Virus genome (UHGV): UHGV-0209512
DNA from: a virus
Length of the DNA stretch: 59,753 nucleotides
Reading direction: 5' to 3' (one strand)
A program made the position numbers and the translations under genes. The notes below the pieces were generated by a model. It saw only the letters and a list, made by a program, of their open reading frames with translations. It searched no databases and was not told the origin of the DNA. Positions 3,475 to 22,737 of this stretch are shown piece after piece; the stretch's first letter is position 1, and every line of letters starts with the position of its first letter.

Positions 3475-4379
3475 TCTTTCCCGTAATAGTTAGCTACTTG
3501 ATAGTTTTGACAACCAACTTTTTGACCCTGCGTGTCCACTGACGCGGAATGAAAATTGCAATACCATGTTCCATCATCTTTTGGCTCAAGAAATTGACAT
3601 GTGCGACAGTTTACTTCCGGCATAGTTTTACGCCAGCACAATGAGGAGTGGTCGCACCATTTGCATTCGAAGAATGTAGAGTCTTTAAAAGCACGGTCAG
3701 GAATATCCGTAGCAATAGCAATCTGCACACCACGATCAATATACATGTCCGCAGTGACCGGATCAAATGGAATAATTTCTGCGTAAACTTCATCATCGTT
3801 CTTGTTTACAGCAAGATATAACGCTGCGCCAAGTCCAAGCTTTCGCATGTACACGTTCATCTGCACATAGTGCTCAGGTTTAGCTTCTTTAACACCTTTA
3901 GCTTTCAGCTTCTTGAAAGACTTATCGTTGTGGGTCTTCATCTCAGTAAGCACAGGCATCCCAGGCTGAACGTCCGGACAACCTATGACCACACCATCGC
4001 AGGAACCGCCAAAGTGTCCGCCAGCTTCGCTGATACGGAACTGGTGTCCGTTTTCATCCTGCTGGTAGACCTGCATACCTGCCGCAAGAAGCATAGCAAT
4101 GAAACGCGCTTCTTCCAGATGTCCGCGGTTAAATAAGCGGAGCTGGCGTCCATCAAACTCTTTACGCGTAGCCCAGCGATATCCGTAGAACAGCTTGCGA
4201 GCACATTGCTGTCCAATAAGGGAAGCGCCTAAGTGACTGCGATTTCCGCTTTCAGGACGATATGCATCTTCAATTGTGGGAATGACTACGCCAAGATATT
4301 TACGGTAAGTCCCACCCTGATCTTTTTGCACACCGTCATTAATCGCTTGAAGTGTTTTTTCTGCAATATAAATAGCCAT
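3471..4379 (-). CDS. Cas4-like / RecB-family PD-(D/E)xK exonuclease with Fe-S type cysteine motif
   Basis: Asp in GSCDGVV and E-x-K in TEMKTH; C-terminal C-x2-C-x5-C (CKWCDHSSLC) plus an N-terminal Cys; sits in the recombination module next to SSB and Sak4-like genes. Confidence 0.65.
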   Translation of the reverse strand: MAIYIAEKTLQAINDGVQKDQGGTYRKYLGVVIPTIEDAYRPESGNRSHLGASLIGQQCARKLFYGYRWATRKEFDGRQLRLFNRGHLEEARFIAMLLAAGMQVYQQDENGHQFRISEAGGHFGGSCDGVVIGCPDVQPGMPVLTEMKTHNDKSFKKLKAKGVKEAKPEHYVQMNVYMRKLGLGAALYLAVNKNDDEVYAEIIPFDPVTADMYIDRGVQIAIATDIPDRAFKDSTFFECKWCDHSSLCWRKTMPEVNCRTCQFLEPKDDGTWYCNFHSASVDTQGQKVGCQNYQVANYYGKD

Positions 4380-4444: not shown

Positions 4445-5329
4445 TTACTGCTGCCACGGCGGGACTGCTGCTTGTGCCGGATGCGGTTCAGCTTGCTGCT
4501 GCGGCTGAGCTTGCTGCTGAGGTGCTGCTACCTGGCCCGGCTGTGCTACCTGCTGCGCCCACGGCTGCTGAGCTGCTTCCGGTGCTACTGGCTGTTGTAC
4601 CGGAGCTTGCTGCACTGGCTGCTGTGGTGCTGCGTTTTGAGCAGGATTATCCCACGGCTGCGGTGCGGCATTCTGCCACGGTTGTGCTGCTGCGCCCTGC
4701 TGTGGTGCTGGTTGCTGCACAGGCTGCTGAACTGGTTGCTGTTGCTGCACCGGAGCTTGCTGCTGTACAGGTGCTTGCTGTTGTTGTGCAAACGGGTTAG
4801 CTGCTGGTTGCTGAGGTGCTGCGCCCGGGAAAGCTGGCTGCTGTGCTGGCGCACCTGCACCGAACGGGTTAGCTACTGCCGCTTGAGCACCCATTGCTGG
4901 AGCACCTGCTTCTTTTTCTGCATACTTAACCGGATCGTTGATGTTAGCATAACCGTTAGGCTCGTTGCTGTCTTCATAACCTTCCTGAGAACGAACTTTC
5001 AGACGCAGGTTCAGCGGAATGTTATGCAGTTGAGCAGGAGTATCCCAGCGAATTACGCCAACCGCGTGGGAAAGCGCGCCCAGTTGCTCGTATGCGATAC
5101 GCACAGTGTCTTCGTTGTCGTTAATAACGTTGTAACGAGCGAAAATTTTACGACCTTTAGCAAAACCGTCAATGATACTGAACGTTACCTGGATTGCCAT
5201 ACCGCCATTTTTGGTCGGTTTAAATTCAGATTCTTGAATTACTGCTTTATACCAACCTTTCGGCAATGCGCCGTAAGAAGGTGCTTGATAGCTGCTCGCG
5301 TCAAAGTGGAAATTAGTTGGCATAGTCAT
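4445..5329 (-). CDS. Putative ssDNA-binding protein (DUF669-like N-terminal domain) with ~160-aa Gln/Pro/Ala-rich tail
   Basis: Globular N-terminal ~135 aa followed by a tail of PVQQ/AQQP-type repeats; position between Sak4-like ATPase and exonuclease. Family assignment is from recall. Confidence 0.45.
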   Translation of the reverse strand: MTMPTNFHFDASSYQAPSYGALPKGWYKAVIQESEFKPTKNGGMAIQVTFSIIDGFAKGRKIFARYNVINDNEDTVRIAYEQLGALSHAVGVIRWDTPAQLHNIPLNLRLKVRSQEGYEDSNEPNGYANINDPVKYAEKEAGAPAMGAQAAVANPFGAGAPAQQPAFPGAAPQQPAANPFAQQQQAPVQQQAPVQQQQPVQQPVQQPAPQQGAAAQPWQNAAPQPWDNPAQNAAPQQPVQQAPVQQPVAPEAAQQPWAQQVAQPGQVAAPQQQAQPQQQAEPHPAQAAVPPWQQ

Positions 5330-6057
5330 TAGTTGATACCTTTCATTTTGTTGATAACAGAACCTAAGTGTGGGACTTCAACCGCATCTAAACGTCCCGA
5401 ACGATCCTTAGCGATTGTATTAAAGTCCGGTTGAGTTTGCAAGTAACGATACGAGTTACCTTGCTGATCCTTATTTACATTCAGACGAAACACTTCGTCG
5501 AAGAAGTAAGGGAGCATTTGCCCCAATTTGGACCCAGGCATAGATGGAGCATACGCGGTAACACCGGAGACTTCATCTTTGTCTTTACCCATTTTAGCAG
5601 ACATGTAAACATGTTTGCCAGGAATATCGCGAAACTTACGGATCAGATCTTGCATCTTTTCAAGCAAAGTACCATAAGCTTGACGAGGATCTTTCGTTCC
5701 CTTTTTCGCGTTGTTTAAACATTGTTCAGCGATTTCGCTCAAGCTGTCAAGCGCAATAGAATCGAAATACTGCTGGTTAGCTGGAGTTACACACCACTGA
5801 TAAGCAGCTTCAACGTCCTCCAGACATTTAACTTCGATAACAGGAATGTCATAAACGATCGGTAATCCCATGTTACCATAAACGCGATTAAGGTTTTCCG
5901 CTGCAATAGATAACAGACCGGACTCTGCGCTGATCAAAATTGGTTTAGGCAGTGTGGCTACAAGGCTGGTTTTACCCATACCTGCTTCACCGTAAACCAG
6001 AATTTTAACGCCTGTGTCTTGCACTACTTGTGAAGACATTTTAATTTCAATGGCCAT
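5329..6057 (-). CDS. Sak4-like RecA-fold ATPase (phage recombination protein)
   Basis: Walker A in ILVYGEAGMGKTS; ~240 aa; AGAGAGG RBS; typical partner of SSB and Cas4-like nuclease. Confidence 0.6.
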   Translation of the reverse strand: MAIEIKMSSQVVQDTGVKILVYGEAGMGKTSLVATLPKPILISAESGLLSIAAENLNRVYGNMGLPIVYDIPVIEVKCLEDVEAAYQWCVTPANQQYFDSIALDSLSEIAEQCLNNAKKGTKDPRQAYGTLLEKMQDLIRKFRDIPGKHVYMSAKMGKDKDEVSGVTAYAPSMPGSKLGQMLPYFFDEVFRLNVNKDQQGNSYRYLQTQPDFNTIAKDRSGRLDAVEVPHLGSVINKMKGIN

Positions 6058-20737: not shown

Positions 20738-21130
20738 ATGCTATTAGTCGTCACCGGAGGTCGAGATTTTAAGCATGTGGAGTATATTTACGCTCAATTG
20801 GATAAGCTGCATATGCAAAGAAGGATAACCACACTTCGCCACGGTGACGCTGACGGTGTTGACCGCATTTGCGCACATTGGGCAGAGCGCAACGGTATTA
20901 AGACAGAAGCGTTCCCTGCCCCGTGGGACAATCTTTCACTGCCAAATACTAAGATACGGTATAACGCCAGAGGTGCTTATAATGCACAAGCGGGCGCTTA
21001 CCGCAATCAATTAATGCTGGATACTGATCCTAAACCAGATCACGCTATTGTGTTTCCAGGCGGAGCTGGTACTATGGACATGTACAGACGGATTAAAGCA
21101 TCCGGTATTCCTTACACATTAGCGGAGTAA
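20738..21130 (+). CDS. DUF2493-like (SLOG-type Rossmann fold) protein
   Basis: LLVVTGGRDF ... HGDADGVDRICAHWA ... AFPAPW ... YRNQLM ... IVFPGGAGTMDM ... GIPY matches the DUF2493 consensus as recalled. Confidence 0.5.
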   Translation: MLLVVTGGRDFKHVEYIYAQLDKLHMQRRITTLRHGDADGVDRICAHWAERNGIKTEAFPAPWDNLSLPNTKIRYNARGAYNAQAGAYRNQLMLDTDPKPDHAIVFPGGAGTMDMYRRIKASGIPYTLAE

Positions 21131-21604
21131 ATGATGGCTGACGTTAAAACTATTGTTGATGCAATGGACGAATCCAAAGACTGCCAACTGAAGAAGTCTT
21201 TTGAAGTGAAACAAGTTACAGAAACGCAGTTGATAAGCAACTTTGCGCGTTATTGCGGATTGGGTCGCGGGAAGGACTGGAACGGTCTCATTGTTATGCC
21301 CACATCACAGATCCTGCTATACGTGCGCAACATTGTAGAAGATGTTCTGCGTCTTCAAATAGATATTGGTGACGTAGAAATTAACATGACCGCTAGTTCC
21401 ACCATTGTGGTTAAATGGCAGTCGGGCGAGACACTTCGTTTGGAAGCGTGTCATTGTGCTAAGAGCTTGCACCACCTGCGCGGTTGTCACTACCAGTTCG
21501 TTGGGTTTGTACATCCGCAAGGGTTAAGCGAGCGTACGGCGCTGGTAGCGCGTTTGCTGCTGCGTCCTTATAATAACGAGCCGGAAGTCATATACGAGGC
21601 GTAA
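21131..21604 (+). CDS. Hypothetical protein (157 aa)
   Basis: Intact ORF; no motif recognised. Confidence 0.5.
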   Translation: MMADVKTIVDAMDESKDCQLKKSFEVKQVTETQLISNFARYCGLGRGKDWNGLIVMPTSQILLYVRNIVEDVLRLQIDIGDVEINMTASSTIVVKWQSGETLRLEACHCAKSLHHLRGCHYQFVGFVHPQGLSERTALVARLLLRPYNNEPEVIYEA

Positions 21605-21605
21605 A

Positions 21606-22028
21606 ATGATTAAACACGTCAAGCAACCAACTTTAAATACATGCGTTTCTGCGTGTTTGGCAATGATCCTTAATAAACCTGTTGAGAAGGTGATTGAGGA
21701 ATTTCATGATCGATATTACAACAACTGGGAAATAACAATTTCCGAATATTTAGTACAAAACAATGTTGACCACATCCGTTCTGTAGGCGGTGGGCGTGAA
21801 ACTATATACATGGGCGGTTTGTTTTTGTGTACTGTCCCAAGTCTGAATGTTCCTGGAGCACTGCATCAGGTTGTGATCGATACAACTAATCACAAGTTTA
21901 TTGTACATGACCCAATTAAAGGTTGGGAAGGTAAAAAGTTCTATGTTGGTCCGGACCAAGATCCTGAACAGCCAGGAGCATTTATCATTCATACTTGGGT
22001 TAAAGACGTTGAGATTGTACTTAATTAA
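21606..22028 (+). CDS. Putative papain-like cysteine peptidase (C39-like)
   Basis: N-terminal QPTLNTCVSACLAMIL (Gln...Cys) and later HQVVIDTTNHKFIVHDP resemble the Cys/His arrangement of C39-type peptidase domains; by eye. Confidence 0.4.
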   Translation: MIKHVKQPTLNTCVSACLAMILNKPVEKVIEEFHDRYYNNWEITISEYLVQNNVDHIRSVGGGRETIYMGGLFLCTVPSLNVPGALHQVVIDTTNHKFIVHDPIKGWEGKKFYVGPDQDPEQPGAFIIHTWVKDVEIVLN

Positions 22029-22090: not shown

Positions 22091-22276
22091 ATGACCAAAC
22101 TATACGCCGGATTGTTTTTATTTGCGACGTTAATGTTCGCTGGACTTTATACCTATACAGTAGTCGAACAACCTTCCACGGTTATCCGAATCTTTGCAAG
22201 TACAGGACTGTGCATCTGTCTTATTCTGTTTGTTTTATGTATTGTTATTATCCAAGACCAAAGGAAAATTAAATGA
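22091..22276 (+). CDS. Small membrane protein (61 aa, two hydrophobic helices)
   Basis: LYAGLFLFATLMFAGLY and GLCICLILFVLCIVII hydrophobic segments. Confidence 0.45.
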   Translation: MTKLYAGLFLFATLMFAGLYTYTVVEQPSTVIRIFASTGLCICLILFVLCIVIIQDQRKIK

Positions 22277-22737
22277 CAACCATTGCTTACGATGGAAAAG
22301 TATTAGCTGCGGACCGTGGAGTTATGCGCGGGGAAGTTGTGACTGCATATAAGAAAGTTCACAGCGTAAATGGGCATCGTGGACGCTTCTTGCTGGGCTT
22401 GTGCGGTCTGACTGCATTTACTGATCAGGTATTGCGTTATTTTAATAGCCCGGAACCTGTTAAGTTCCCTGATATTAAACTTTACAGCAAAGATGATGAT
22501 TACGGGCAAACTTGCGGTCTTGCGGTTACTCCGGAAGGCACTTGCCATTTTATTTACAATGATGGTACGTTGAGCGAGCCTATGCTGGACGGCTGGGGGT
22601 CGGATGGTAGCGGTTGTGTGTTTGCTGCGGGAGCTCTGGCTGCTGGTGCAAGCGCACGCGAAGCTATCGAGCTAGCAATCAAGCATACTACATGTGCATT
22701 TCTTGGCGTTGATACAATATCGTTTGAGGGTTTTTAA
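22273..22737 (+). CDS. HslV/proteasome beta-like N-terminal-nucleophile peptidase homolog
   Basis: Starts M-TTIAYDGKVLAAD (Thr right after Met, as in HslV TTIVSV); C-terminal GSDGSGCVFAAGALAAGASAREAIELAIKHTTCAFLGVDTISFE parallels HslV GSGGPYAQAAARALL...; AAGGAAA RBS. Confidence 0.5.
   Translation: MTTIAYDGKVLAADRGVMRGEVVTAYKKVHSVNGHRGRFLLGLCGLTAFTDQVLRYFNSPEPVKFPDIKLYSKDDDYGQTCGLAVTPEGTCHFIYNDGTLSEPMLDGWGSDGSGCVFAAGALAAGASAREAIELAIKHTTCAFLGVDTISFEGF

Follow-up and report, generated by a model that had tools for sequence, protein, structure and literature searches.

A phage family of free-standing C39-type cysteine peptidases predicted from a Seuratvirus gene that neighbours an HslV-like gene

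Introduction

What would a phage do with a small, free-standing cysteine peptidase whose nearest likeness is to the C39 domains? The question is raised by an open reading frame (ORF) in the viral genome UHGV-0209512, which was analysed here as one stretch of 59,753 nucleotides (the window). A sequence-only reading of this genome, made without database searches, had proposed that the ORF at 21606-22028 encodes a C39-like papain-fold peptidase, with a Gln-x5-Cys motif near its N-terminus and a downstream His in the motif IVHDP as its catalytic residues. It had further proposed that this gene, a small membrane protein gene and an HslV-like gene place two putative proteases in one operon segment of a lytic phage. 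The ORF lies exactly where it was placed (Table 1). The window belongs to the genus Seuratvirus (subfamily Queuovirinae) and represents a virulent siphovirus, in agreement with the lytic lifestyle supposed; over 2.9 kb around the peptidase gene it is 92-96% identical to phages phiG7, CSP1, Seurat and CAjan.

Here, we report that the gene encodes, with a probability of roughly 0.9, a papain-fold C39-type cysteine protein with catalytic competence. The reading that we favour for its function, at about 0.6, is that of a cytoplasmic endopeptidase that, independently of export, cuts a host or phage protein at specific sites during infection, probably Gly-Gly-like ones. The ORF itself, the fold, the homology to C39 peptidases and the invariance of the catalytic residues across a large phage family have direct support.

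Results

Fold prediction and homology

Modelling with AlphaFold2, using the family alignment as input, predicted a papain-like alpha/beta fold with high confidence (pLDDT 94.7, pTM 0.90). The best structural matches of the model were C39 domains: PCAT1 (score 9.5), the LahT150 double-glycine protease (9.4), the ComA peptidase domain (9.4) and the C39-like protein 3erv (9.3). Cys13 opens a helix spanning residues 13-22 of the model, His87 lies in the strand 86-92 and Asp102 follows the strand 99-101, so placed that the predicted structure has the classic papain arrangement.

Profile-profile comparison led to the same family. We aligned 116 relatives, sharing 27-64% identity with the window protein, and compared this alignment by hhalign with 35 LahT150-type C39 domains. 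The match had a probability of 92.2% (E = 5.8e-7) over 97 columns and placed Q7, C13, H87 and D102 of the phage protein on Q21, C27, H101 and D117 of LahT150, residues that were assigned from an inhibitor-bound LahT crystal structure (PMC6363468). Pfam Peptidase_C39 was matched independently by 29 of the 116 relatives (E ≤ 0.1; best 2.4e-6), and no other family recurs among their Pfam matches. The related profile Peptidase_C39_2 (PF13529) was matched by three of them, with a best E-value of 0.04, and gave no match to the window protein. Apart from one protein of a Bacillus phage labelled 'Peptidase C39 domain-containing protein', the matches in BFVD were all uncharacterised relatives from phages; NCBIfam and PADLOC held no meaningful match for the peptidase or its neighbours. 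We regard the homology of the window protein to C39 peptidases as convincing; two of the checks named in the sequence-only reading, a profile search and a structure prediction, both bear out its assignment of a C39-like papain fold.

Active-site residues

The peptide QPTLNTCVSACLAMIL, present in the ORF, carries the Gln7-x5-Cys13 motif. Taken bare, this motif is worthless as evidence, because the 91 ORFs in the window with 100 or more amino acids contain it 20 times. The extended layout Q-x5-C...H...DP is far more restrictive: among the same ORFs it is unique to the peptidase, and it arose in only 27 of 20,000 shuffles of the peptidase sequence (0.14%).

Conservation among the 116 relatives amends the catalytic site that had been read from the sequence (Table 1). 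Gln7 and Cys13 hold as proposed. The Asp of IVHDP, Asp102, is invariant and would be the third residue of the triad; Pro103, directly after it, is likewise invariant (116/116). The His of this motif does not hold. Position 101 is occupied by Tyr in 42 relatives, Leu in 34, Phe in 26 and His in 7, and because His87 is invariant while His101 is so seldom kept, the catalytic layout predicted from the alignment is Gln7/Cys13/His87/Asp102. The conservation of this Gln/Cys/His/Asp set argues for an active enzyme. Three further elements are near-invariant or invariant and specific to the family, namely EFH at residues 32-34, VPSLN at 77-81 and Tyr113.

Occurrence in phages

The window protein matches PHROG 4049, a family of unknown function, over its full length (E = 8.7e-56; residues 1-139 on profile positions 2-140 of 145). 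The C39 assignment of PHROG 4049 and its catalytic residues come from the present analysis. An initial search returned 23 relatives, down to 35% identity, and a profile search of 1.84 billion representatives returned 1,098 clusters (at 50% identity) with E ≤ 0.001, 677 of them with E ≤ 1e-10. Most clusters comprise standalone proteins of 135-160 amino acids. Among the longer members, a scan for additional, fused domains turned up a single YunG-like domain and a single weak zinc ribbon, neither of them informative.

By tblastn, the gene was present in 196 phage records from at least eight phage taxa, including Queuovirinae, Ackermannviridae, Stephanstirmvirinae, Vequintavirinae, Samunavirus, Enhodamvirus and jumbo phages. 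When representative bacterial genomes were scanned, with a narrower pattern than had been used for the viral scan, a single locus came up, and the family appears to be overwhelmingly phage-borne. Nearly all of the 196 records describe the product as "hypothetical protein"; one has "peptidase C39 family protein" and one "T3SS chaperone". The latter label is attached to a 97%-identical ortholog in CSP1C (PQ202980.1, 51938-52357) and is unsupported by the searches made here; the same record labels neighbouring genes 'threonine-tRNA ligase' and 'DprA'.

Most of the phages in these records carry the gene close to a genome end, surrounded by small genes that lack annotation, or together with genes for DNA metabolism and DNA modification. 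Its neighbours in the early or accessory regions of unrelated phages include DNA methylases, Mom, helicases and a Lar-domain protein. A member in a Methylophaga metagenome-assembled genome (NVWQ02000058.1, locus 5001-5432) lies between the Mu portal and MuF genes of a Mu-like prophage region, with start and stop codons that overlap those of its neighbours; such a place otherwise belongs, typically, to cargo proteins that are packaged in the head or ejected.

Association with the HslV-like gene

The HslV-like gene downstream (Table 1) can be assigned to PPH, a published family of HslV-like proteins of about 140 amino acids found in Caudovirales and defined by an N-terminal Thr and an Asp/Lys catalytic set (PMC8665760). 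The HslV-like protein of the window has 154 residues and carries Thr2, Asp14, Lys28 and Gly112-Ser113. Its match to Pfam Proteasome (E = 0.0084) stayed under the threshold. Across the PPH alignment every sequence has Met1 and Gly112, and each of Thr2, Asp14, Lys28 and Ser113 is present in at least 90% of sequences.

The authors who described PPH reported no informative gene co-occurrence and found no partner for it (PMC8665760). To survey gene context from the side of the peptidase, we took 79 homologues on viral contigs together with the window and sorted them into 31 groups, between which the C39-like proteins are less than 70% identical. The sole recurrent neighbour among these groups was the HslV-like gene. 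It lies downstream on the same strand within 5 kb in 8 of the 31 groups and is directly adjacent (-28 to +665 nt) in 5; in Nonagvirus 9g the gene order is peptidase-PPH, as in the window. The remaining 23 groups have no PPH gene within 5 kb. Reciprocally, 68 PPH loci had enough upstream sequence to be examined, and a C39-like gene was found upstream in 7 and was missing from 61. An earlier view, drawn from three distant contexts, that the link to PPH is absent outside Seuratvirus was dropped after the 79 viral loci had been clustered.

The contigs or genomes that carry the adjacent pairs range from about 21 to 61 kb, most of them measuring 57-61 kb, and a holin family is common to four of the five adjacency groups. 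Because of these shared features, inherited synteny within a Queuovirinae-like lineage suffices to explain the adjacency. In a rough neighbour-joining tree, the PPH-adjacent peptidases do not form one clade, and the Seuratvirus copy groups with copies from Ackermannviridae. The pairing of two proteases noticed in the sequence, with the 61-residue two-helix protein between them, is real and conserved; as a general arrangement it fails, being confined to one phage lineage.

In Enterobacteria phage 9g (NC_024146.1, locus 3747-4264) the PPH gene is split, with positions 1-66 of the hidden Markov model (HMM) matched in one frame and 74-153 in another, and the record annotates only an 83-residue 'peptidase HslV family' fragment. 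Either a frameshift, a sequencing error or a pseudogene accounts for the split.

Homologues within a topoisomerase operon

The closest relatives of the window protein outside Seuratvirus are found in Ackermannviridae, at 44% identity. In two divergent groups of this family, Kuttervirus and Agtrevirus-like phages, the homologue is wedged between the genes for the large and medium subunits of a phage type II topoisomerase: its ATG begins 1 nt past the stop codon of the large subunit, and its 3' end overlaps the start of the medium subunit. A review of Ackermannviridae mentions neither a topoisomerase nor a peptidase. For Escherichia phage EP75 (NC_049433.1, gp128; locus 3480-3929), the deposited coding sequence begins at an internal Met (locus 3531), which removes the catalytic Gln and Cys; the full ORF opens with an ATG at locus 3480, after a GAAGGGG ribosome-binding site.

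This setting recalls Cpe1 and StbD-CT. These interbacterial toxins, which cleave GyrB/ParE at the conserved loop LHAGGKF, are the only free C39 peptidases of the cytosol to have been characterised. The phage topoisomerase has LYAGSNF in place of this loop. A single Gly-to-Ser change did not block the cleavage of GyrB by StbD. No type II topoisomerase is encoded in the window.

Gene neighbourhood

With a stop codon that ends 1 nt short of the peptidase ATG, the preceding gene is probably translationally coupled to the peptidase gene. The upstream partner encodes a 157-residue protein with no Pfam match and a weak, sub-threshold NCBIfam match to DpdG (E = 0.033); outside Seuratvirus it does not recur beside the peptidase. 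Two genes upstream lies a 130-residue SLOG-domain protein related to YAcAr/YspA (Pfam E = 4.9e-18), which related phages label variously as 'GTP-binding domain' or 'DNA processing protein DprA'. Consensus scans for promoters and terminators around the peptidase gene remained at background level.

Between the peptidase gene and the membrane protein gene we observed a stem-loop of 12 outer and 2 inner pairs (-20.1 kcal/mol, z = -3.7), matched in folding by none of 200 shuffles. It would sequester the ribosome-binding site and the AUG of the membrane protein gene. As no U-tract follows, it looks like an element of translational control or RNA processing and not like a terminator.

Table 1 Positions of the peptidase gene, its predicted active-site codons and its surroundings in the window.
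Feature	Position	Strand	Details
130-residue SLOG-domain protein	20738-21130		YAcAr/YspA-related
157-residue protein	21131-21604		PHROG 25149, function unknown
GAGG, ribosome-binding site of peptidase gene	21596..21599	+	6 nt before ATG; read from sequence
TAA of upstream gene	21602-21604	+	Ends 1 nt before peptidase ATG
C39-type peptidase ORF	21606..22028	+	Standalone, clan CA, PHROG 4049; ATG start, 140 codons
Gln7 codon	21624..21626	+	Proposed oxyanion-hole residue; 116/116 relatives; aligns with LahT150 Gln21
Cys13 codon	21642..21644	+	Predicted nucleophile; 115/116 (one Ser); aligns with LahT150 Cys27, helix alpha1
His87 codon	21864..21866	+	Predicted catalytic base, in GALHQVV; 116/116; aligns with LahT150 His101, strand beta4
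His101 codon	21906..21908	+	Non-conserved position; His in 7/116
Asp102 codon	21909..21911	+	Predicted third triad residue; 116/116; aligns with LahT150 Asp117
Stem-loop	22058-22093		Overlaps start of membrane protein gene at 22091
61-residue protein	22091..22276	+	Two hydrophobic helices; PHROG 22841, function unknown; between the two protease genes
HslV-like gene (PPH)	22273..22737	+	154 aa; PHROG 1040, E 5.6e-33

Discussion

The reading that we favour treats the product as a free endopeptidase of the infected cell. Cys13, at the start of the first helix, would act as the nucleophile, His87 and Asp102 on neighbouring strands would complete the triad, and Gln7 would supply the oxyanion hole. 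No signal peptide, membrane segment or anchor, or wall-binding domain was detected in the window protein. The peptidase would be a free, soluble protein of 140 residues, translated within a run of small accessory genes and probably acting in the cytoplasm of the infected cell. There it may make limited, site-specific cuts, probably beside Gly-Gly or a similar small-residue motif as its relatives do, in a host protein, for takeover or counter-defence, or in a phage protein; removal of a leader from an exported peptide would play no part. That the enzyme is a peptidase, and not another kind of acyl-transfer enzyme, we infer.

Several observations weigh against this reading. Taken alone, the window protein scored 14.2 bits against Pfam Peptidase_C39 (PF03412), below the cutoff of 22 and over residues 3-24 only. 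Single-sequence and family-profile HMM searches of PDB sequences returned nothing significant, with LahT150 the best relevant match of the family profile at E = 1.8. Because sequence-only scores are sub-threshold, membership of C39 rests on the profile-profile and structural comparisons, and the Cys-His-Asp geometry is deduced from alignment equivalences and secondary-structure positions. Enzymatic activity is a prediction for every member of PHROG 4049, and a papain fold with a Cys-His-Asp triad is found in deamidases, transglutaminases and acyltransferases too. The genomic settings are heterogeneous as well (lysis-proximal, topoisomerase operon, lambdoid nin-like region, portal-MuF) and point to no single substrate.

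Two more specific proposals arise from the gene neighbours. The peptidase and PPH could form a two-protease module, in which the former processes or activates the latter, or makes a first cut that precedes degradation by PPH. The directly adjacent, co-oriented gene pairs, the wider count within 5 kb, the shared order in phage 9g, the scatter of PPH-adjacent peptidases in the rough tree and the failure of the PPH authors to find a partner (PMC8665760) can all be counted for such a module. Set against them are the 23 of 31 peptidase groups without a nearby PPH gene and the mere 7 of 68 PPH loci with a C39-like gene upstream, by which neither protein generally needs the other; for the adjacency, moreover, inherited synteny is explanation enough. 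PPH also begins Met-Thr-Thr, so that the host methionine aminopeptidase, whose specificity permits removal of Met before Thr, can expose the Thr nucleophile and no dedicated protease is needed. We consider a module of this kind unlikely. Equally unlikely, in our estimate, is a host-takeover protease that cleaves GyrB/ParE, the ATPase subunits of the host type II topoisomerases, at the LHAGGKF loop in the manner of Cpe1 and StbD-CT. It draws on the fact that all characterised free cytosolic C39 peptidases hit exactly this target, on the homologue lodged inside a phage topoisomerase II gene pair in two divergent groups, on the 44% identity of these homologues to the window protein and their grouping together in the rough tree, and on the altered loop of the phage topoisomerase. 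However, the window phage has no topoisomerase of its own and would destroy gyrase without an obvious replacement, the topoisomerase linkage is confined to one phage family, and the window protein lacks the delivery domain, autoprocessing linker and immunity gene of the C39 toxins and is structurally no nearer to StbD-CT than to the exporter domains. The difference between LYAGSNF and LHAGGKF is not diagnostic either, because a Gly-to-Ser change left StbD cleavage unblocked. Topoisomerase cleavage is a lead, not a result.

The remaining explanations change the chemistry or the site of action. With the same fold and triad, the protein might instead deamidate glutamine, act as a transglutaminase or transfer acyl groups, its substrate being a host protein or a small molecule. 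The papain-like superfamily does include the non-peptidase members BtrH, phytochelatin synthase and deamidase toxins (PMC10318531), and single members of the phage family gave weak Pfam matches to Phytochelatin and TGL; yet these alternative matches have E > 0.007, the nearest structural and profile matches of the window protein are true endopeptidases, and Gln-x5-Cys and His...Asp-Pro are motifs of proteolytic C39 domains, which makes a non-proteolytic role distinctly unlikely. A deconjugase that cuts ubiquitin-like modifiers after a C-terminal Gly-Gly, and so counters bacterial ubiquitin-like conjugation defences, we hold to be quite improbable. A literature search on phage cysteine proteases in anti-defence found nothing, and a paper on Avs2 that names Seuratvirus and proteases proved unrelated to the peptidase gene. 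An accessory role in lysis has a slim chance. The protein would then leave through the holin and act as a cell-wall (iso)peptidase, in the way of PeiR or of the CHAP and NlpC/P60 domains of endolysins. The gene stands far from those for lysis, among replication or early genes, in Ackermannviridae, Stephanstirmvirinae, Vequintavirinae, Samunavirus, Enhodamvirus and several metagenomic phages; a cell-wall-binding domain, a signal peptide and a membrane anchor are all missing from the window protein, whose phage already encodes an endolysin (PHROG 873, E = 3e-59). The classical C39 role, in which a double-glycine leader is removed from a phage bacteriocin or signalling peptide during export by an ABC transporter, would follow from the homology to leader peptidases, but no transporter is fused to or adjoins the window protein. 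Among window ORFs of at least 30 amino acids the strict double-glycine leader pattern had no match and a relaxed pattern picked out implausible ORFs only, leaving no plausible substrate, and we judge this role extremely unlikely.

Neither the fold nor the chemistry is new; the novelty lies in where they occur, a large phage family of free C39-type peptidases with an invariant active site. Only recent work has revealed free C39 peptidases as weapons that act inside cells, with precision, on type II topoisomerases. It is conceivable, if improbable, that the phage family is related to Cpe1 and StbD-CT and is likewise a host-takeover weapon, its Gly-Gly cleavage site lying in the ATP-lid loop of host GyrB/ParE or in some other essential or defence protein. 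A phage counterpart, if real, would constitute a new class of host-directed phage protease and offer biotechnology a new specific endopeptidase. Ackermannviridae would then co-translate the peptidase with their own, differently sequenced topoisomerase II, swapping the host topoisomerases for the phage's, and the Seuratvirus copy would share that target while being paired instead with the phage proteasome homologue. More immediately, the orphan PPH, whose authors had reported none, gains a first recurrent gene neighbour. Members of PHROG 4049 are almost always recorded as "hypothetical protein" and are sometimes mis-annotated. The immediate practical use of the analysis lies in their annotation, with the right catalytic residues assigned and the start codon mended in Kuttervirus records.

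Comparison with known systems

Among characterised enzymes, the pseudomurein endoisopeptidases PeiR and PeiW of methanogen viruses (MEROPS C71) carry cell-wall-binding repeats and function in lysis, whereas the phage protein has no such domain; only a short stretch around the Asp-Pro motif aligns with it (E = 0.88). The C39-like domains (CLDs) of HlyB-type transporters (3zua, 3b79) lack the catalytic Cys and serve in substrate binding only. In contrast, the phage family keeps Cys13 in 115 of 116 relatives, which ruled out an inactive CLD as an explanation.

The toxins Cpe1, of the type VI secretion system, and StbD-CT, of contact-dependent inhibition, have a C39 fold with the Cys-His-Asp triad that is also predicted in the phage protein. 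In the toxins, delivery or entry domains and an autoprocessing linker with Gly-Gly accompany the peptidase, and an adjacent gene encodes the cognate immunity protein. Only six residues precede Gln7 in the phage protein, and none of these elements is matched by its neighbours, which are PHROGs of unknown function.

The C39 domains of AMS/PCAT exporters (LahT150, 6mpz; ComA, 5xe8/3k8u; PCAT1, 8vp3; PF03412, MEROPS C39) share both the fold and the aligned catalytic residues. These domains, which cut after Gly-Gly, Gly-Ala or Gly-Ser, form the N-terminal part of an ABC transporter, whereas the phage protein is free, with its own start and stop, and the double-glycine leader substrate of the exporters was not found among window ORFs of at least 30 amino acids. 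The phage family, in turn, has the motifs EFH (32-34) and VPSLN (77-81) and Tyr113, which are absent from the exporter domains.
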